Origin: Alphaproteobacteria bacterium
GTDB taxonomy: Bacteria; Pseudomonadota; Alphaproteobacteria; SMXP01
Length of the DNA stretch: 64,000 nt
Direction: 5' to 3'
Assembly: GCA_028285305.1 (NCBI GenBank)
Contig: JANQPV010000037.1
Coordinates: forward strand, 94,838-158,837
The stretch's first letter is position 1; each line of letters starts with the position of its first letter. The position numbers and the translations under genes are program-made. Of the stretch, positions 5,581-23,122 are shown one piece after another. The notes under the pieces are model-generated. The model worked only from the letters and a program-made list of their open reading frames with translations, was not told the DNA's origin and made no database searches.

Positions 5581-6396
5581 TTATTTGACTTGATCCGCCC
5601 AGTTTGGTTTGCGTTTTTCCAAGAAGGCGGCAACACCTTCTTTGCCCTCCGGCCCAAGCATACATTCAGCGAAACCGTTTGCCGCCATATCCAGCATCGC
5701 GTCCCGGTCAAGCTTGGGTGTTGCCAAAACGATGTCTTTGGTGACCGCATTGGCACCGGGAGCACACTTCATCACTTGTTTCTTGATGTCCGCTTCGATG
5801 CGTTCCATATCGGCGACATCTTTTGCGACGAAGTCCGCCAGTCCATTTGTGCCCGCATCAAGGCCGGTGAACCGTGCAGCCGTCAGCATCAGGCGCCGCG
5901 CCGTTGTCATGCCGAGCCTTTGAACGACAAAGGGGGCAATTTGCGCCGGCGGAATCCCAAGCGTCGTTTCAGTCAAGGCGAATTTAGCGTCTTGCGTTAC
6001 GACAACGATGTCTCCCGTGCACACAATGCCCAGACCTCCCGCCATTGCCACCCCTTCAACCAACATGATCACGACTTGTGGCATCGTGTTGATAAGGCCG
6101 AACAATTCACCGCCCGCTCGGCTCGAGGCGGCAACATCTTGAACGGTTTGCTCACCACCCTGAAAATTCGACTTAAAGCCTTTCAGGTCGCCGCCGGCAC
6201 AAAAGACACCGCCTTTACCGCGCAGCGTAATTCCCCGCACGGTACGATCGTCCCGCACGGACTCCAACACATTTCTGAGGTCCGACGTCAGCTCGCCCGA
6301 TAGCGCGTTGCGCGCCTCTGGCCGATTAAACCAAATGGTCAGCCATCCCCCATCGAATTCAGTCAAAACATACTCTGTACTCGGCAAATTGGGCAT
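5581..6396 (-). CDS. enoyl-CoA hydratase/isomerase family protein (methylglutaconyl-/isohexenylglutaconyl-CoA hydratase-like, AtuE/LiuC-like)
   Basis: Crotonase-fold motifs (LTIWFNRPEARNAL, FCAGGDLKG). It lies between the carboxylase alpha and beta subunits. Confidence 0.8.
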   Translation of the reverse strand: MPNLPSTEYVLTEFDGGWLTIWFNRPEARNALSGELTSDLRNVLESVRDDRTVRGITLRGKGGVFCAGGDLKGFKSNFQGGEQTVQDVAASSRAGGELFGLINTMPQVVIMLVEGVAMAGGLGIVCTGDIVVVTQDAKFALTETTLGIPPAQIAPFVVQRLGMTTARRLMLTAARFTGLDAGTNGLADFVAKDVADMERIEADIKKQVMKCAPGANAVTKDIVLATPKLDRDAMLDMAANGFAECMLGPEGKEGVAAFLEKRKPNWADQVK

Positions 6397-6426
6397 TACT
6401 TCATTCCCCCCCGATAGACCAGTCCA

Positions 6427-8049
6427 TCACATCCGTGCCACGCCAAAACTGTTCGGACGGACCTCACGGTGCTGAGCTTCCCATAAGGTATCAAGCAGGA
6501 AGCCTAAGGTTTGGCGGGTTTCCCTGGGGTCGATCATACCGTCGTCCAACGTGTGACCCGACGTGTAAAAGCCGCCCGCCTGTGTATCGTAGAGGTCGAT
6601 AAGGAACTCTTCTTGCTTGTTCAGAGCCTCCCGGTCGACGTCCTCGCCTGTGCGTTCGGCTGCCCCTTCGGAAACAATCGTCATCACTTTTGCGGCTTGC
6701 TCGCCGCCCATCACGCCCGTCGAAGAGTTCGGCCAAGAGTAAATAAAGTCCGGACTATAACCCTGACCGCACATGCCGTAATTTCCAGCGCCAAAACTGG
6801 CGCCAGTCATAAACGTCAGACGCGGCACTTCAATGTTGGTCACGGCTTGGATCATTTTCGATCCATGTTTGATCATCCCCGCCCGTTCATATTGGGATCC
6901 AACGATATAGCCGGTTGTATTCTGTAGAAAAACGACAGGTGTGCCCGCTTGATCGCAAAGCTGCATAAACTGGGTGGCCTTCGTTGCCCCGTCCGGATCA
7001 ATCGGACCATTGTTGCCAATAATCCCGCACCGGTGTCCAAATACGTCGGCATGAACACACGCTGTCGAAACACCGTAACGCGGTTTGAAATCGGAAAACT
7101 CGGAACCGTCGACAATTCGTGCCATGACTTCACGCACGTCGTAAGGCTTTCTATAGTCGACCGGAACGATGCCGGCAATTTCGTCCGGATCGTATTTAGG
7201 CGCGGCAAAGTTTTCATCGGGACGCGACGCGCATCTGGAATTCCAATCGAGACGCTCAATAACTTCCCGCGCCAGCATCACGCCTTCGCTGTCGTCATCG
7301 GCTAAGAACTCTGCCAGTCCCGAGACAGAAGCGTGCATTTCCGCACCTCCAAGCTCGTCTTCGGTGGCAATTTCTCCTGTTGCCGCCTTCAAGAGTGGCG
7401 GTCCGGCCAGAAAGGCTTTCCCGCGGCCGCGCACGGCAACCACGTAATCACTCATCCCCGGCATGTAGGCGCCGCCTGCCGTTGATGATCCGTGCAAGAC
7501 CGAAATAACCGGCACGCCCGCCTTACTCATCCGCGCCTGGTTGGCGAACATCGTGCCACCCTTTGTGAAACCGTCCACCCGGTAGTTGATCAAGTCGCCG
7601 CCCGCGCTTTCGACCAGATGGACGAAGGGTAGCTTCTGTTGCCGCGCGATCTCCAACGTTCGCACAATTTTGTAGGCCGTCGCGCCCATCATCGCGCCGG
7701 CGCGGATGCCGCTATCATCAACAGCGATCATACAGCGCACGCCTTTGACGAACCCGATGCCGGAGATCAGGGTGCTGCCCGGAATGGACTTTTCTTCCGG
7801 AAGACCATCGGAGAGATAACCGGCGATATTGCAGACGCTCAAAAACGGCATGCCTGGATCAAGCAATTGCGCGAGCCGTTCCCGCGGGGTGAGCTGTCCC
7901 CGGTCGCGAAAACGTTGCTTGCGGCTCTCAGACATTGCGGGCGCTCTATTGTTCAGCTCCGTGAGTTTATCAATCAGCTGCAACATCTCCGCCCGGTTGG
8001 TCTGAAAAGACTCAGACGAGGGACTGATCTTCGAGGCAAAAACGGTCAT
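6427..8049 (-). CDS. acyl-CoA carboxylase carboxyltransferase beta subunit (AtuC/LiuB-like)
   Basis: 540-aa carboxyltransferase-family sequence. Its ATG overlaps the stop of the upstream AtuA-like gene (ATGA), consistent with translational coupling. Confidence 0.85.
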   Translation of the reverse strand: MTVFASKISPSSESFQTNRAEMLQLIDKLTELNNRAPAMSESRKQRFRDRGQLTPRERLAQLLDPGMPFLSVCNIAGYLSDGLPEEKSIPGSTLISGIGFVKGVRCMIAVDDSGIRAGAMMGATAYKIVRTLEIARQQKLPFVHLVESAGGDLINYRVDGFTKGGTMFANQARMSKAGVPVISVLHGSSTAGGAYMPGMSDYVVAVRGRGKAFLAGPPLLKAATGEIATEDELGGAEMHASVSGLAEFLADDDSEGVMLAREVIERLDWNSRCASRPDENFAAPKYDPDEIAGIVPVDYRKPYDVREVMARIVDGSEFSDFKPRYGVSTACVHADVFGHRCGIIGNNGPIDPDGATKATQFMQLCDQAGTPVVFLQNTTGYIVGSQYERAGMIKHGSKMIQAVTNIEVPRLTFMTGASFGAGNYGMCGQGYSPDFIYSWPNSSTGVMGGEQAAKVMTIVSEGAAERTGEDVDREALNKQEEFLIDLYDTQAGGFYTSGHTLDDGMIDPRETRQTLGFLLDTLWEAQHREVRPNSFGVARM

Positions 8050-9833
8050 GCCACTTTCTCTGCAATATCTTTGGGAACGGATATAGGGTGATCAAGAAGG
8101 ATTTGCGCATAGGCTTTGCCTTGCGGATCGTTTCTTAGGCTGGCAACACCGCCCCCGCCGAGGGCCTCATGCAACAGGAAATTGATCGCCTTGGGCCCCG
8201 GCATATAAAAGCGTTCCAAGTCTCCCTCAAGGAAGTGGGAGAACCGATCTTTCACAGCATCTTCCGACAGCGACGCCCAAATATAGGGGAGATAAGCTGC
8301 GTCTCGCGCGATAATTCCGATATTGGCCTTGTTGCCTTTGTCCCCACTGCGGCCCCACGCCAACTTCACAAGAGGAACGTCAACTTCACCCTGAACCGGT
8401 TGTGGAGCCTCTGGCCGCTTGATCACTTTCGGATCAAAACTTGTGCCAAGCGCTTCTTGAAATGTGATCTTCTTACCATCGATATCAATCTCAATGGGCA
8501 CACGCGCGCGTGGCAGAAGAAAAGAGAACAGACGAATCATGGGAGACGGTTTCGCCCGGCTTCCGGCAAAACCAGACAAACCAGGAGGCGTCGCAAGGGC
8601 CAGCCCGGTCGCTTCTCTCAACAAGAGAGATATGCCCTTGTCCGATTCATGTTTCGCCGCCAGCTTTAACACCACCTCTCGCGGCTCGCTCGATCTGGAG
8701 TGGTCTCCGTATTGACTGCCTCCGCCGATCACTTCCACGCTGGTCTCCGTGTAGTCCGGCTGGTTCATGGCCCGCAAGGTCTCTCGCGCCCTGGTGATCG
8801 CTGCATCGGCCATGGTCTTCGCTTTTTTGTCCGCATCAAGACCGATAAAACTCATATAGGTCCCTCCGCGAAATCCATCTGCATAGGTCGCGCAAACCTT
8901 GTAGGTGTCTGGCGGTCCATACCCGATCGCATTGGAAACTTTCACCCGGTTCGCACCTGCGTCTTCGATCTTGACCTGGGAGAAATCGCAAACAACGTCG
9001 GGCAGAAAATAGGCCTGAGGGTCACCAATTTCATAGAGCATCTGCTCGGAAACCGTCCCGACATTTACGGCACCACCGGTATCGTCCGGCTTGGTACATA
9101 CAAACGTTCCGTCATCGGACACTTCCGCGATAGGATAGCCAATTGTCGCGAGGGTCTCAGCGACCGTATGCCAGTCCGTAAAGTTTCCCCCCGTCGCTTG
9201 CGGTCCGCATTCCAGAATATGACCAGCGAGACTGCCTTGAGCCAACCTATTCCAATCATCCGCCCGCCAGCCAAACTCATGAATACACGCCGCCAACGTT
9301 ACCGCGCTGTCCACAACCCGGCCCGTGACAACGATATCCGCACCGGCCGCCAAGGCTCGGGCGATTGGAAACGCACCTAGATAGGCATTCATACTGGCGA
9401 GAATTGCCGGGTCCGGAAACGTCTCACCCGAGAACATTTCCTTTATGCCCTCGCTCCCGAACTCGTCTTTTCGCGGCATCAGATCATCACCCGTAACGAC
9501 CGCGACCGTCAGATTGAGGTTTTGCTCAGCGACGAGCGCTCTGATCGCCGCACCGCATGCCTCCGGATTAACCCCGCCCGCGTTCGAGAGTATCCGAACG
9601 CCTTTTTGAGCAATCTCTTGGAGATTGGGTTTCATCACCGCGGTCACAAAGTCGGTGGCGTATCCCGCATCGGGATTTTTTGCCTTCGCGCGCGCCATGA
9701 TAGACATCGTGATTTCCGCCAAATAGTCGTACACGATGTAATCGACATTCGCGGAACGGAGAAACTGCGGCGTCGCCATGGCCGACTCGCCCCAAAATCC
9801 GCTGGCGCCGCCAATCGAAATCGTCTTTGTCAT
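8046..9833 (-). CDS. acyclic terpene utilisation AtuA family protein (DUF1446)
   Basis: 595-aa protein with N-terminal MTKTISIGGASGFWGESAMATPQFL...YIVYDYLAEITMSIMA typical of AtuA/DUF1446. A strong RBS GGAGGTGAGGAAG lies upstream. It is first in an operon with the carboxylase subunits. Confidence 0.75.
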   Translation of the reverse strand: MTKTISIGGASGFWGESAMATPQFLRSANVDYIVYDYLAEITMSIMARAKAKNPDAGYATDFVTAVMKPNLQEIAQKGVRILSNAGGVNPEACGAAIRALVAEQNLNLTVAVVTGDDLMPRKDEFGSEGIKEMFSGETFPDPAILASMNAYLGAFPIARALAAGADIVVTGRVVDSAVTLAACIHEFGWRADDWNRLAQGSLAGHILECGPQATGGNFTDWHTVAETLATIGYPIAEVSDDGTFVCTKPDDTGGAVNVGTVSEQMLYEIGDPQAYFLPDVVCDFSQVKIEDAGANRVKVSNAIGYGPPDTYKVCATYADGFRGGTYMSFIGLDADKKAKTMADAAITRARETLRAMNQPDYTETSVEVIGGGSQYGDHSRSSEPREVVLKLAAKHESDKGISLLLREATGLALATPPGLSGFAGSRAKPSPMIRLFSFLLPRARVPIEIDIDGKKITFQEALGTSFDPKVIKRPEAPQPVQGEVDVPLVKLAWGRSGDKGNKANIGIIARDAAYLPYIWASLSEDAVKDRFSHFLEGDLERFYMPGPKAINFLLHEALGGGGVASLRNDPQGKAYAQILLDHPISVPKDIAEKVA

Positions 9834-17503: not shown

Positions 17504-17671
17504 GGAAGCTCCTTTGAGGATTTTCTAAGGATCGTACCGGGAAACGAAATCTCCGCCCAATCAACCTCGCTCACATAGGCGCGGGGTCCGCGTGAGCGCC
17601 GCACACAATCACCTTCGTGCCTCTGATCCGTCAAGCGACCCGAGGCCGTATTAGATTCCGAAAGGGCCAAA

Positions 17672-19213
17672 ATGAGAAAAGCGAGCGTCAACATCGTCTG
17701 GTTCAAACGCGACCTTCGGGTAGAAGACCATGCGGCACTCACCCAGGCCAGCCAGCCCGGACCGGTGTTGCCGATCTATGTCGCCGAGCCTGAGTTTTGG
17801 CAGCAAAGCGATGCGTCCGCCCGGCAATGGGCGTTCGTGTCTGAATGCCTTGCTGAACTCCGCGAAACGTTTGCCGACCTCGGCCAACCCCTGATCGTTC
17901 GCGTCGGGGACATCATTGACGTGCTCGCAGATCTTTCGAGTGAGTTCAAAATCGCCGCCGTCTACTCCCATCAAGAAACGGGAAACGGCTGGACCTACGA
18001 CCGGGACAAACGCGTTGCAGCCTGGTTGAGTGAACGCTCCATCCCGTGGCGCGAGCCCCGTCAAAGCGGTACGATCCGCCGTCTGAAAACACGGGATGGC
18101 TGGGCAAAGAAGTGGGACAAGTTCATGAGCGGCAACACTTTGCCTGCGCCCCGGCTGACGCCACTGCACGACATTGCCCTTGGAACCATTCCATCATTTA
18201 GCGAGCTTAGACTGAAACCGGACCCATGTGCCGGGCGCCAGGCAGGCGGACGAACGGCAGGTCTAGAGCGCCTGACGAGTTTCTTGGAAAGCCGCGGCGA
18301 AACTTACCGCAAGTCCATGTCAGCGCCCGGTCCTGGCGCCGAACATTGCTCCCGGCTGTCGCCCCACCTGGCCTGGGGAACCCTCTCCATGCGCGAAGTC
18401 ACGCAGGCCACATGGAAACGGCAAAGAGACCTCAAACTGGCATCCAAACCGACCGGGTCGTGGCGGGGATCTATGACGTCGTTTTCCGGTCGTCTCCGCT
18501 GGCGGGACCATTTCATCCAGAAGCTCGAGGACGAACCGAGATTGGAGTTCAATAATCTGCATCCCGCCTATGATGGGCTGCGACCCGAAGAACCGAACCA
18601 GACAAAACTCAAGGCTTGGGCGGCGGGCGAAACCGGCCTGCCCTTTATGGATGCCTGTATGAGGTGCCTTAATCAAACCGGCTGGATGAATTTCCGTATG
18701 CGGGCTATGTTGCTGGCCACGGCCAGCTATCACCTCTGGCTTCCGTGGCAAGCCAGCGGCGAACATCTCGCCCGTCAGTTCACCGATTATGAGCCGGGAA
18801 TCCACTGGCCCCAAGTTCAAATGCAATCGGGCACGACCGGGATCAATACTATCCGGATCTATAATCCGGTGAAACAGGGTTATGACCAAGATCCGGACGG
18901 CGCCTTTACCCGCCGCTGGGTTCCGGAACTCAACGGGGTTCCTGATCGTTATCTTCACGAGCCATGGAAATGGGATGCCGCCGATACGGTTCTCGACAAA
19001 GCTTACCCTCGACCTTTGATTGATCCAGTTGCGTCTGCACGGGAAGCAAAAAACAAGGTCTATGCAGTACGAAAACGCCCGGACTTCAGAAAGGACTCTG
19101 ACCGCATACAGAAAAAGCACGGATCGAGAAAATCGGGGCTCCCTATGACTGGGCGCAAAAAGAGAAAATCCGTACCCAAAGAGCAGCTCGCTCTTGACCT
19201 GAAAGACCAGTGA
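17672..19213 (+). CDS. cryptochrome/photolyase family protein (FAD-binding; CPD photolyase or cryptochrome, class uncertain)
   Basis: Photolyase N-terminal alpha/beta domain (IVWFKRDLRVEDHAAL) and FAD-binding region (TGLPFMDACMRCLNQTGWMNFRMRAM...IRIYNPVKQGYDQDPDGAFTRRWVPEL). Confidence 0.85.
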   Translation: MRKASVNIVWFKRDLRVEDHAALTQASQPGPVLPIYVAEPEFWQQSDASARQWAFVSECLAELRETFADLGQPLIVRVGDIIDVLADLSSEFKIAAVYSHQETGNGWTYDRDKRVAAWLSERSIPWREPRQSGTIRRLKTRDGWAKKWDKFMSGNTLPAPRLTPLHDIALGTIPSFSELRLKPDPCAGRQAGGRTAGLERLTSFLESRGETYRKSMSAPGPGAEHCSRLSPHLAWGTLSMREVTQATWKRQRDLKLASKPTGSWRGSMTSFSGRLRWRDHFIQKLEDEPRLEFNNLHPAYDGLRPEEPNQTKLKAWAAGETGLPFMDACMRCLNQTGWMNFRMRAMLLATASYHLWLPWQASGEHLARQFTDYEPGIHWPQVQMQSGTTGINTIRIYNPVKQGYDQDPDGAFTRRWVPELNGVPDRYLHEPWKWDAADTVLDKAYPRPLIDPVASAREAKNKVYAVRKRPDFRKDSDRIQKKHGSRKSGLPMTGRKKRKSVPKEQLALDLKDQ

Positions 19214-19216
19214 GCC

Positions 19217-19387
19217 ATGGCCCGCCACGTCGCGAAATCAGTTCTCCCCACCAAAGTTTGCCCCATATGCTCTCGCCCCTTTACATGGCGAAAGAAATGG
19301 GAAAAGGATTGGGAACACGTGAAATATTGCTCCCGCCGGTGCCGCGGCAGCGCCCGGTCCGCCCCCCTCCAAAAAGGCAGGTCGTAA
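19217..19387 (+). CDS. DUF2256 family small zinc-ribbon protein (56 aa)
   Basis: My translation from the ATG at 19217, four nt after the photolyase stop, is [56 protein letters not shown]. This is the CPxCxxPFxWRKKWxKDWxxVKYCSxRCR signature of DUF2256. It falls below the 60-aa ORF-track cutoff. Confidence 0.75.
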
Positions 19388-19467: not shown

Positions 19468-20241
19468 ATGAGCGTACTTGATGCTTTCAAACTCACCGAT
19501 AAAACGGCCGTCGTCACTGGTTCCGGCCGCGGCATTGGACGCGGAATAGCCTTGGCTCTTGCAGAAGCAGGTGCAAATGTTGTGGTCTCGGCCCGGCGAC
19601 AAGACGATATCGATGCTGTGGCCAAAGAGGTTGAAGGCCTGGGGCAACAGGCGCTGGCCATTGCCGCGGATGTGACGAGTTCCGAAGATATGGATCGCTT
19701 GGCTCAAGGGGCTGTCGACAAGTTCGGCACCATCGATATCTGGGTGAACAATGCCGGCGGCCTCCCCGATGGCACACCGCGTTACCTCACAAAAACGTCT
19801 GAGGACAAATTCGCCGGCCAGATCAATTTGAACCTTAACGCTGTCTGGCTGGGGTGCGTCACTGCCGCCCAACACATGAGCGAAAACGGAGGCGCAATCA
19901 TCAACATTTCTTCGCGGGCCTCACACGGACCGCAGATCAAAAACGGCCCCTACGGCGCGTCGAAGGCAGCCGTGAACAGCCTTACATCCACCTTCTCCGT
20001 CGAACTCGCCCCGAAAATCAGGGTGAATGCCGTGGCCCCAGGACCCATTGTAACTGACAATTTCCGCGACAGCATGAACATCCAAGACGGCGAGTACGAA
20101 GAAAAGCTCCGCAAGATGATCAACATTCCACTAGAACGCTATGGAGAGCCCGAAGATATCGGTGCAGCCGTTGTCTACTTCGCCTCCCCGGCTTCAGCCT
20201 GGGTCACGGGACAAGTTCTTTTTGTGACGGGAGGCCTATAG
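19468..20241 (+). CDS. SDR family NAD(P)-dependent oxidoreductase
   Basis: TGSGRGIGRGIA Rossmann motif, NNAG, and a catalytic YGASKAA. 257 aa. Confidence 0.9.
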   Translation: MSVLDAFKLTDKTAVVTGSGRGIGRGIALALAEAGANVVVSARRQDDIDAVAKEVEGLGQQALAIAADVTSSEDMDRLAQGAVDKFGTIDIWVNNAGGLPDGTPRYLTKTSEDKFAGQINLNLNAVWLGCVTAAQHMSENGGAIINISSRASHGPQIKNGPYGASKAAVNSLTSTFSVELAPKIRVNAVAPGPIVTDNFRDSMNIQDGEYEEKLRKMINIPLERYGEPEDIGAAVVYFASPASAWVTGQVLFVTGGL

Positions 20242-21783
20242 GGATCCGGACGGGCTATCGAGAGACTTGAGAATTGTACGGGCCCGTTTCCTGTAAGCCT
20301 TCTGGGTATCGGGCTTCATACGTTCCCATGTGCGGTACACATTCCCAAGACGTGGATTGCTCTTGAGCTTGGCTTCATTGCGCACGAGAAAATCCCAATA
20401 GAGCGCATTAAAAGGGCACGACTTGTCACCGGTCTTGTCTTTGACCGAATACTGGCACCCCTTACAGTAGTTCGACATGCGATTGATATAGGCCCCGCTG
20501 GCGGCATAGGGTTTCGAGCCTAACAACCCGCCATCCGCAAACTGGCTCATCCCGATCGTATTCGGCATCTCCACCCACTCATAGGCATCCAGATAGACCG
20601 CCAAATACCATTCGTGCACGTCGCGCGGGTCAATGCCTGCGATCAACGCGAAGGTTCCGGTGACCATCAGGCGCTGAATATGGTGCGCATAGCCGAAGTC
20701 CCGCGTTTGTTCAACGGTCGAGCGGACGCAGGCCATGTCCGTTTCTCCGGTCCAATAAAAGTCCGGCAGCCCACGCTTGTTCCCAAAGTAATTCTCATGC
20801 TCATAATCCGGCATCTTGAGCCAGTAGATCCCACGGACATACTCACGCCAACCCAAGATCTGGCGAATAAAGCCCTCGACCGAATTGAGCGGCGCAACGC
20901 CCTCTTGGTACGCCTCTTCCGCCCGCCGGCAAAGATCAAGAGGATCAAGCAGACCTATATTGAGATAGAGCGACAACACGCTGTGGAACAGGAACGGTTC
21001 ATCCGTAAGCATTGCATCTTGGTAGTCGCCGAAGTGAGAGAGACCCACCTGAAAGAACCGGTCCGCGATCTGCTCAGCGTCCTTCCGCGTCACCGCATAG
21101 TCGAATCTCTCAGTCGTGCCGAAGTGATCTCCAAATCCTTCCTCAACCATCAAAGAGACATCCTCAACGATCGGATTCGGCGTTACCGTTCCACGCGACG
21201 GCATTTTCAAATCTGCGGGTGGCCTTTTACGATTTTCGGCATCGAAGTTCCACTTGCCGCCAATTGGCTTGCCACCCGCCATCAAGAGCCCATGCTTCTT
21301 GCGCATATCACGGTAGAAGTACTCCATACGGAGTTGTTTGCGTCCCTCCGTCCAACCCCGAAATTCATCCGTGGAACACAGGAAACGAGTATCGTCCACC
21401 AGGGTTAGGCGAACTCCGCACTCTCTGGCCCAATCTGTCAGGGCCTTTTGTACAGACCAGGAACTGGGACTGACGGCGACAATATGGTCGGTCTCGTGAC
21501 GGTTCAGCGCCCGGGCCGCCTCTCCAGTCAGCGTTCCCGTATTATTCGAGTCCGTTAGCTCCACATAGTCGACGTTCCAGCCCAGTGCGCGCAGTTCGTC
21601 GCGATAGTGGCGCATGGCGGAGAAGAGAAAGACGAGCTTCTTCTTGTGATAGGGAACCCGCATGGCCGCCGATCGCACTTCGCACATAAGGATCACGTCT
21701 TTGGATGGATCAGCGCCGCACTGGTCCAGAAGACCGGGCGTCAGGTGATCGCCCATGACCAAGATCAACTTCTTTCCGCTCAT
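20236..21783 (-). CDS. FeS-cluster bacterial cryptochrome/photolyase (FeS-BCP; PhrB/CryB-like (6-4) photolyase family, COG3046)
   Basis: It shares family-wide similarity with FeS-BCPs, including the C-terminal Cys cluster motif YCKGCQYS...KSCPFNALYW. The ATG at 21783 lies 2 nt after the upstream SDR stop. Its 3' end overlaps the convergent SDR gene by 6 nt. Confidence 0.8.
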   Translation of the reverse strand: MSGKKLILVMGDHLTPGLLDQCGADPSKDVILMCEVRSAAMRVPYHKKKLVFLFSAMRHYRDELRALGWNVDYVELTDSNNTGTLTGEAARALNRHETDHIVAVSPSSWSVQKALTDWARECGVRLTLVDDTRFLCSTDEFRGWTEGRKQLRMEYFYRDMRKKHGLLMAGGKPIGGKWNFDAENRKRPPADLKMPSRGTVTPNPIVEDVSLMVEEGFGDHFGTTERFDYAVTRKDAEQIADRFFQVGLSHFGDYQDAMLTDEPFLFHSVLSLYLNIGLLDPLDLCRRAEEAYQEGVAPLNSVEGFIRQILGWREYVRGIYWLKMPDYEHENYFGNKRGLPDFYWTGETDMACVRSTVEQTRDFGYAHHIQRLMVTGTFALIAGIDPRDVHEWYLAVYLDAYEWVEMPNTIGMSQFADGGLLGSKPYAASGAYINRMSNYCKGCQYSVKDKTGDKSCPFNALYWDFLVRNEAKLKSNPRLGNVYRTWERMKPDTQKAYRKRARTILKSLDSPSGSL

Positions 21784-21785
21784 GG

Positions 21786-22508
21786 CTACCAAGGTACCCG
21801 TTGGCTCGCATGATCAAAGAAGCCACCATTCGCGTCAGTGTCCAACTCATCAATCACGGTGAGGAGTTTTGACGCCGACTCTTTGGGGGTGAAGGCGCTC
21901 CGCTTACCGACATATCTCTCACTGAGGGGGGTCAACACAGTCCCCGGCTGGAGCGCAACACACAGGAGACTGGGCCGTGAGCGGGCAAACTCGATAGCTG
22001 CCGTTTTGACAATTTGATTGAGCGCCGCCTTCGAAGCCCGATAGGAGACCCAACCGCCAATCTCGTTATCACTGATAGAGCCGACGCGGGCCGACAAGGT
22101 TGCAAAAACGGTCTTGCCGGTCTTCGGCATGAGCGGCACCAAGTACTTGATGAGGAGCGCCGGTCCAACGGCATTGATACGGAACGCCTTGGACATTGTC
22201 TCGGCAGTGATCATTTTCAACGACTTTTCGGGCCCCGCCCCGTCAATTTCCAACGCGCCCGTCGCATCAATGATGAGCGAGAACTTCTGGCGATCTCCGG
22301 AGAGTTGTTCCGCACACTTTTCAATGGAGCGTTCATCCAAAAGATCAAATCCGGGATGGGAGCTTCGGTCCATCCGATGAACCTCGGCACAACGGGGATC
22401 TTTATCCAAAGCCGCAAGAAGCGCACCGCCGATCCCGCCGGTTGCCCCTACAACAAGAGCATGGAAAGAATCCCCAAAGCTCTTAAGCCCGCTCGCACTA
22501 TCCATCAC
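21786..22508 (-). CDS. SDR family oxidoreductase (C-factor/CsgA-like short-chain dehydrogenase)
   Basis: VVGATGGIGGALLAAL Rossmann motif and YRASKAALN. Its start overlaps the GST stop (ATGA). Confidence 0.85.
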   Translation of the reverse strand: MMDSASGLKSFGDSFHALVVGATGGIGGALLAALDKDPRCAEVHRMDRSSHPGFDLLDERSIEKCAEQLSGDRQKFSLIIDATGALEIDGAGPEKSLKMITAETMSKAFRINAVGPALLIKYLVPLMPKTGKTVFATLSARVGSISDNEIGGWVSYRASKAALNQIVKTAAIEFARSRPSLLCVALQPGTVLTPLSERYVGKRSAFTPKESASKLLTVIDELDTDANGGFFDHASQRVPW

Positions 22509-23122
22509 CCAACCGGTTCCAGCGCCTTCTGAAGCCCTGGGCGCTCCATCAAACGCTTCCGATAGGCTTTCAGGTTCTCCTGTTCAAGGAGCTTCAGATT
22601 ACCGGCAGAGAAAATCGCATGGCCGATCATGATATCGGCCGCGGAAAAAGGCCCGCCCAACAAGAAATCATTGTCACCCAGTTGCGCGCTCACGCGGGCC
22701 AAGAGCGGCAGCGCATTGGCTTTTGCATAGTCCGCCACTTGCGGCAAACGCTCTTCTTCTGGCCGCCAGTAGCTATTGATCGCATAATCCGCAACAGGAC
22801 TAAGGAGTGTCCCTTCTGCAAAATGAATCCAACTGAGATACTCCGGCCATCCAGCCTCTCCCGGCCGCGGCGCGAACTTACCTTCTTCATCATATGTATA
22901 AAGAATATAGTCTACGATGGCAGATGATTCAAAAACCCTTACGCCATTATCTTCGATTGCCGGCACCCGCCCAAATGGATGCACGCGCTCGAATTCGCTC
23001 GCGCCCAATGCCGGATCGTCAAACCCGGACAACACCTTCAGCTCATGCGGAACGCCAAGTTCTTCCAGGAGCCAACGGATGCGGACAGAGCGTGTGAGAT
23101 GGATATGATAAAGAACAAGCAT
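22505..23122 (-). CDS. glutathione S-transferase
   Basis: Thioredoxin-like N-terminal domain (LVLYHIHLTRSVRIRWLLEELGVPHE) and a C-terminal helical GST domain. It is first in a three-gene coupled operon. Confidence 0.8.
   Translation of the reverse strand: MLVLYHIHLTRSVRIRWLLEELGVPHELKVLSGFDDPALGASEFERVHPFGRVPAIEDNGVRVFESSAIVDYILYTYDEEGKFAPRPGEAGWPEYLSWIHFAEGTLLSPVADYAINSYWRPEEERLPQVADYAKANALPLLARVSAQLGDNDFLLGGPFSAADIMIGHAIFSAGNLKLLEQENLKAYRKRLMERPGLQKALEPVG

Follow-up and report, generated by a model that had tools for sequence, protein, structure and literature searches.

A short open reading frame (ORF) at positions 19217–19387 raises the question of whether a gene lies hidden between a photolyase-family gene and an SDR oxidoreductase gene and, if so, what its product has to do with photolyases. 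The window referred to below is the whole 64-kb stretch of DNA that was analysed. An initial annotation had proposed that the ORF encodes a zinc-ribbon protein of the DUF2256 family, that this protein is co-translated with the photolyase, and that DUF2256 is repeatedly found beside photolyase/cryptochrome genes.

The gene and its family

The ORF on the plus strand starts with ATG at 19217, ends with a TAA stop and encodes 56 aa; re-translation gave a product identical to that of the initial annotation. The HMM search proposed there as a check on the family assignment returned Pfam PF10013 (DUF2256) with 74.5 bits (E 7.2e-21), against a gathering threshold of 25 bits, and residues 7–44 covered profile positions 2–39 of 40. 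No other Pfam family matched the protein at E 0.01 or better, and no NCBIfam model covers it. A chance ORF or a gene on the wrong strand was considered and rejected: the five overlapping ORFs in other frames or antisense, among them antisense ORFs of 271 and 302 aa, had no Pfam match even at E 0.1. The chance reading was also countered by GC3, which peaked in the proposed frame (0.68, compared with 0.62–0.66 in the neighbouring genes). By these sequence features, 19217–19387 is a genuine gene encoding a stand-alone DUF2256 protein, the only copy in the 64-kb window.

The ORF had been described as unlisted, and public gene calls on an identical contig (Logan SRR20820731; L081, 4546–4713) skip it as well. 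It is likewise clearly present yet uncalled in a related NCBI MAG (L083, 4045–4176) and was called by annotators in another locus (L086). Because the calls omit the ORF on both the identical contig and the related MAG, genome-context studies based on gene calls would under-count DUF2256.

No identical protein was found among the 5.8 billion proteins searched. NCBI entries named 'DUF2256 domain-containing protein' were 66%–71% identical to the window protein (best match, 66%), and relatives of 44–70 aa with 55%–78% identity came from Proteobacteria, Bacteroidota, Cyanobacteria, Chloroflexota and Gemmatimonadota. The four cysteines of the protein (C15, C18, C38 and C42) are arranged as C-x2-C-x19-C-x3-C, and the zinc-ribbon core C15–C42, encoded at 19259–19342 on the plus strand, carries the invariant pattern RPFTWRKKW...W...V.YCS..C, as delimited by the alignment and an AlphaFold2 model. 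This spacing was shared by 309/309 homologues, the Cys span always being 28 residues, and the 38-aa core was gap-free in all 81 sequences aligned. All 16 residues that were invariant in a 30-sequence alignment (K7, L10, P11, K13, C15, C18, F22, W24, R25, W28, W32, V35, Y37, C38, S39 and C42) are present in the window protein. Its net charge is +12 and its pI 10.7; the 309 homologues had medians of +10 and 9.9, respectively, and a median length of 61 aa. The 13-residue C-terminal tail of the window protein is basic, and the tails of the family are basic and variable. Thus, the window protein shares the Cys spacing, the invariant residues, the stand-alone size of 45–70 aa and the basic tail with the DUF2256 family and differs from it in nothing material. 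Judged by sequence, the gene adds one ordinary new member to a family that is known but uncharacterised.

A profile search matched at least 7,970 clusters at 90% identity, and 2,501 clusters at 50% identity, of which the best 150 representatives were all ≤ 120 aa. DUF2256 is among the most frequent domains in bacterial proteins of ≤ 50 aa (PMC11796252). No published function of DUF2256 was found; the literature mentions the name only, and 'COG4338' gave no literature match. Proteins with two tandem DUF2256 ribbons were rare (P0074, 120 aa; P0075, 92 aa), and most cyanobacterial DUF2256 proteins carry a fifth Cys (in WEKCW or WADCW).

Operon structure and promoter candidate

Around the ORF, the genes follow one another as DUF3179 on the minus strand; the photolyase-family, DUF2256 and SDR genes on the plus strand; and a DPRP-type gene, a second SDR gene and a GST gene on the minus strand. 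The presumed operon opens with the gene (17672–19213, +) for a 513-aa protein of the cryptochrome/photolyase family (CPF) with PF00875 and PF03441 (DNA_photolyase and FAD_binding_7). It scored below the cut-off of every NCBIfam subfamily model and is far from any solved structure, its best relative in the PDB reaching only E 2e-42. The SDR gene (19468–20241, +; Pfam adh_short and adh_short_C2) lies 80 nt downstream of DUF2256; both neighbours named in the initial annotation were borne out by Pfam. A second CPF gene of the DPRP (FeS-BCP/(6-4)-photolyase-like) type, matching PF04244 at 256 bits, lies convergently at 20236–21792 on the minus strand, and the window thus holds two CPF genes side by side. 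The DPRP gene belongs to a minus-strand GST-SDR-DPRP string (20236–23122), and the 3' end of its ORF shares 6 nt with that of the operon SDR. In Shewanella, DPRP and SDR genes have been reported as a pair under a sigmaE-type promoter (PMC4336711).

The photolyase and DUF2256 ORFs meet at a stop-start junction, TGA-GCC-ATG (19211–19219, +), which is a likely site of translational coupling. With the TGA at 19211–19213 and a 3-nt spacer, the A of the ATG is the fourth base after the stop, in agreement with the distance of 4 nt given in the initial annotation. In the syntenic loci with the gene order of the window, 10/13 had stop-start distances of −4 to +3 nt, with junctions such as TGAgATG, TGATG and ATGA. 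An ATGA overlap also occurred in the related MAG L083. The same strand and a distance of only a few nucleotides were kept in relatives, as befits a coupled partner of a CPF gene. No obvious Shine-Dalgarno sequence was detected for DUF2256, and no terminator-like site was found between the photolyase, DUF2256 and SDR genes. Given the recurrent tight junction and the lack of an obvious Shine-Dalgarno sequence or terminator, termination-reinitiation coupling from the photolyase to DUF2256 is a reasonable inference from the sequence: ribosomes finishing the photolyase would likely re-initiate 3 nt further on, and both proteins would be made together. Of the proposed co-translation, the recurrent tight junction is well documented, and the coupling itself is likely. 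We also infer, with good support, that DUF2256 is co-transcribed with the upstream photolyase-family gene; the downstream SDR gene is probably part of the same transcript.

The photolyase and DUF2256 ORFs also share a frame, with only TGA-GCC between them, and some ribosomes might pass the stop to yield a 570-aa photolyase-zinc-ribbon protein. One 567-aa protein joining a photolyase to DUF2256 does occur in a metagenome (P0312). However, it is known from a single contig, labelled 3.14x coverage, and the C-terminal motif normally present is broken; it may therefore be an artefact of assembly. The junctions in the syntenic loci fall in other frames or overlap, and therefore the shared frame in the window looks like a one-in-three coincidence. 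Such a read-through fusion is hardly credible. Domain fusions were also considered as a clue to function and set aside, as those found were the two tandem duplicates and the unreliable P0312.

A candidate sigmaE/ChrR-type promoter, TGATCC-N17-CGTA, was located at 17624–17650 (+), 22 nt upstream of the photolyase ATG, and was the only match to TGATCC-N15-18-CGTA in the 64-kb window; no sigma-70-like promoter was found at the photolyase/DUF2256/SDR locus. The consensus for photo-oxidative stress under sigmaE/ChrR is TGATCC-N16-CGTA, and in Pseudomonas syringae and Shewanella oneidensis, promoters of this type serve operons of photolyase and DPRP-SDR genes (PMC5507510; PMC4336711). In Vibrio cholerae, ChrR mediates the blue-light induction of CPF operons (PMC5241685). 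The spacer of the window candidate is 17 nt rather than the 16 nt of the consensus, and the motif was absent upstream of the photolyase in four closer relatives. With a deviating spacer and no conservation among related loci, the motif is assigned tentatively. A sigmaE-type promoter was rejected as a general feature of DUF2256 loci, 11 being found in 80 loci compared with approximately 12 expected by chance. No rpoE-chrR pair was present among the 10 small candidate ORFs scanned in the window.

The C-terminus of the photolyase (encoded at 19090–19213) has the form KH[GA]SRK..., a basic stretch and Q-[LM]-x-[FL]-D-[LF], a conserved ending among alphaproteobacterial photolyases of the window type that was also seen in four other loci (L018, L030, L056 and L063). 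This tail (KHGSRKSG...QLxLDL) was rejected as a docking motif linked to DUF2256, as relatives without DUF2256 carry it too. In the four closer relatives of the window photolyase, DUF2256 lies downstream in two (one of them uncalled) and is absent in two.

Neighbours of DUF2256 across genomes

A scan of one genome per species yielded more than 596 DUF2256 loci, of which the best 80 were analysed; chosen as the best matches to the window protein, these are biased towards its relatives. A CPF gene lay within 400 nt of DUF2256 in 34 of the 80 loci, mostly within 60 nt and on the same strand in 32, whereas our own estimate of the chance expectation, assuming approximately three CPF genes per 4,000-gene genome, is approximately 0.1 in 80 loci. 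Ranked by distance, the CPF gene was upstream in 17 of the 34 loci and downstream in 15, and the match overlapped DUF2256 in 2. The partners were of the window type in 12 loci (40%–57% identical), DPRP in about 10, Cry-DASH above the NCBIfam cut-off in 6, short photolyase-like proteins with the FAD domain only in about 5, and a divergently oriented class I-like enzyme in 1. The loci came from Alpha-, Beta- and Gammaproteobacteria, Bacteroidota, Rhodothermota, Chloroflexota, Acidobacteriota and Planctomycetota and spanned at least seven phyla. Given that DUF2256 occurs on either side of the CPF gene and in at least seven phyla, the arrangement does not reflect one inherited synteny. The linkage between DUF2256 and CPF genes is strongly enriched and has been re-created repeatedly. 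The recurrence beside photolyase/cryptochrome genes that the initial annotation had mentioned is thereby given a count, with a proviso that it had omitted: over half of the loci (46/80) had no CPF gene within 8 kb.

Two other genes recurred around some DUF2256 loci. DUF2805 (about 97 aa) was encoded divergently upstream of the window-type photolyase in three Algoriphagus loci and one Limnohabitans locus (L002, L009, L016 and L036; about 6170–6500, −), all of which also carry DUF2256, and it directly adjoined DUF2256 in a locus without a photolyase (L039, 7611–7904, −). Like DUF2256, DUF2805 is a small conserved protein of unknown function encoded beside a CPF gene, although the two are unrelated in sequence and fold. 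A gene for a flavin amine-oxidase-like oxidoreductase came immediately after DUF2256 in two Porticoccaceae loci without a photolyase; in three alphaproteobacterial loci, it lay upstream of the photolyase in divergent orientation (L022, 8162–9148; L069, 8168–9178; L035, 5350–6357; L058, 4994–5983; L083, 501–1493).

The loci without a CPF gene showed no neighbours recurring across phyla beyond a cyanobacterial synteny. About a dozen related cyanobacterial loci had the order SpoU methylase, DUF2256 (about 8001–8150) and isoaspartyl peptidase, and no photolyase (L010, L014, L027, L040, L043, L049, L054, L060, L062 and others). Among viral sequences, 36 IMG/VR contigs carried DUF2256, with an adjoining CPF gene in one of them. 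In two sets of mutually related prophage-like contigs, with 14 and 5 members, it stood among phage genes; at L105 (4971–5126) and L107 (5001–5117), these included phrog_1376 and a gene for an Erf-like annealing protein, and no photolyase lay nearby. DUF2256 had no match in cultured phage genomes, and no PHROG family is dedicated to it. It was also found on 78 plasmid or chromid records, three loci of which were inspected. Those of Agrobacterium and Erwinia were without a CPF gene. In Vibrio parahaemolyticus (NZ_CP141289.1; L125, 3814–8731), DUF2256 stands 32 nt behind msrB, in the same orientation, and converges on an operon of SDR, cryptochrome-photolyase and Cry-DASH genes. The Vibrio locus, from a culturable species, places DUF2256 among genes for oxidative stress and photorepair.

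Fold and probable role of the protein

An AlphaFold2 model built from the family alignment had a core pLDDT of about 90 for residues 11–48, with a zinc-knuckle hairpin (12–14/21–23) and a C-terminal helix (40–48) carrying the CxxxC. Through its four Cys, the modelled protein would bind one zinc ion. Together with the HMM match and the invariant residues, the hairpin and the CxxxC helix upheld the proposed identity of the protein as a DUF2256 zinc ribbon. As modelled, it is a strongly cationic, single-zinc C4 ribbon of approximately 40 residues and of the FCS/TRASH type. The top fold matches of the model were YacG, an FCS finger and L24e, with low Z scores (3.5 to 2.1); Foldseek returned the same top matches, none of them significant. 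A profile comparison of DUF2256 with Escherichia coli YacG in hhalign, with a manually entered YacG sequence, gave a probability of 86% and E 5e-6 over 31 columns. A profile search of the PDB gave zinc-finger matches at chance level only and no chain related by sequence. YacG belongs to the DUF329 family. These fold matches and the profile comparison agree with the placement of DUF2256 in the Pfam TRASH clan with DUF329, zf-FCS, MYND, HIT and L24e (PMC4047054). The aromatic-C-S-x2-C motif of TRASH/FCS domains is present at the second Cys pair (Y37-C-S-R-R-C42), and the top fold matches, themselves members of the clan, accord at their low Z scores with a treble-clef-like fold.

YacG, a DNA gyrase inhibitor (PDB 4tma), thus resembles DUF2256 in its Pfam clan, as the top structural match and in the CPxC...W...[FY]CSxRC pattern. 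However, its loop is 4 residues shorter than the 19 residues of DUF2256 in the hhalign alignment, and the invariant RKKW of DUF2256 has no counterpart in it. YacG contacts GyrB via an acidic, Trp-containing C-terminal tail, which the window protein lacks, its own tail being basic. With Pfam yielding DUF2256 alone and no match to DUF329, the differing loop and tail led us to reject the identification of the window protein as a YacG. Nor does the gyrase link of YacG have a parallel here, as no gyrase gene recurs in DUF2256 neighbourhoods. The eukaryotic FCS zinc fingers (L3MBTL2, PDB 2w0t) and the CGNR finger of DUF1470 (3h0n) are domains inside large proteins, whereas the DUF2256 ribbon is the whole protein; the likeness is at the level of fold and motif only. 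DUF2256 would work in the manner of the FCS/TRASH zinc ribbons, its distant relatives.

A gene arrangement common to many bacteria suggested that DUF2256 probably takes part in the light/UV-damage response and is functionally part of a photodamage module with CPF enzymes. In Vibrio, Shewanella and Pseudomonas, CPF operons respond to blue light or singlet oxygen with induction via sigmaE/ChrR (PMC5507510; PMC4336711; PMC5241685), and this induction elsewhere, together with the candidate motif in the window, provides a context for such a role. Counting against it are the DUF2256 genes without an adjacent CPF gene (46/80 genome loci, 35/36 viral contigs and 2/3 plasmid loci) and the two close relatives of the window photolyase with no DUF2256 downstream.

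As the likeliest mechanism, we tentatively favour non-specific binding of nucleic acid, probably DNA, by which the protein would aid the repair of photodamage. Its large positive charge, an invariant R-K-K set between aromatic residues and its occurrence near phage recombination genes point in this direction. Contact with nucleic acid, without sequence specificity, would be made by the zinc ribbon and by its invariant basic/aromatic loop (F22-T-W-R-K-K-W-x3-W), and DUF2256 could thereby assist photorepair or accompany it, for instance in keeping damaged DNA that is distorted or single-stranded stable for photolyases or, alternatively, in shielding DNA. It would not be a dedicated subunit of one particular photolyase. 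No partner-specific residues hinting at a complex with the adjacent photolyase were found in the 38-aa core across 81 sequences, and since this core is uniform whichever CPF class adjoins it, or none, the target is probably universal and not the neighbouring enzyme.

The three invariant Trp residues, F22 and Y37 may instead form the hydrophobic core of a 40-residue domain and not a surface that contacts DNA. YacG, the nearest solved relative, binds a protein (GyrB) and not DNA, which also argues against DNA binding. The main rival to nucleic-acid binding is a YacG-style protein binder that would dock on gyrase or another topoisomerase, on RNA polymerase or on the FAD domain of CPF enzymes and, under light/UV stress, modulate its target, for instance through a pause in supercoiling or replication during repair. 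We consider this somewhat unlikely: the Pfam result, the longer inter-Cys loop and the basic, variable tails all separate DUF2256 from YacG, and neither gyrase nor topoisomerase genes recur in its neighbourhoods.

Regulatory, RNA- or ribosome-related and metal-handling roles were rated lower than both nucleic-acid binding and a YacG-style binder. DUF2256 might act in light signalling or transcription, as the output partner of a cryptochrome-like CPF protein or as a small regulator of photo-oxidative stress, which appears improbable. Equally improbable is a general RNA- or ribosome-binding mini-protein whose proximity to photolyases reflects co-regulation only; the SpoU synteny is limited to one related cyanobacterial set and is maybe an inherited gene order, and the CPF gene is the only neighbour that recurs across phyla. 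A TRASH domain might also deliver or buffer metal, for example for the Fe-S cluster of DPRP-type enzymes, and the C-x2-C-x19-C-x3-C pattern fits the spacing of TRASH domains. Membership of the TRASH clan (PMC4047054) likewise favours metal handling; however, the partners include ordinary FAD_binding_7 classes and not only those of the DPRP model, the protein lacks a signal peptide, its gene has no transporter neighbours, and its four Cys are most simply read, on the model, as a structural zinc site. A metal-handling role is highly improbable.

For the window itself, the result carries little weight, since all that it adds is another copy of a very common domain of unknown function. Of greater interest is the family as a whole, which is almost invariant from cyanobacteria to Bacteroidota, and its measured link to five photolyase/cryptochrome classes offers a concrete experimental handle on DUF2256. 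Building on non-specific nucleic-acid binding, a bolder and doubtful reading is that DUF2256 is an unrecognised, near-universal accessory to photoreactivation in bacteria, which opens UV-damaged DNA, or marks it, for several photolyase classes. Cry-DASH-type enzymes have been reported to act only on single-stranded DNA (PMC5241685). If DUF2256 were such an accessory factor, it would enable several photolyase classes, including the Cry-DASH type, to act on chromosomal DNA, and this would explain both its co-translation with five CPF classes and its near-constant sequence.
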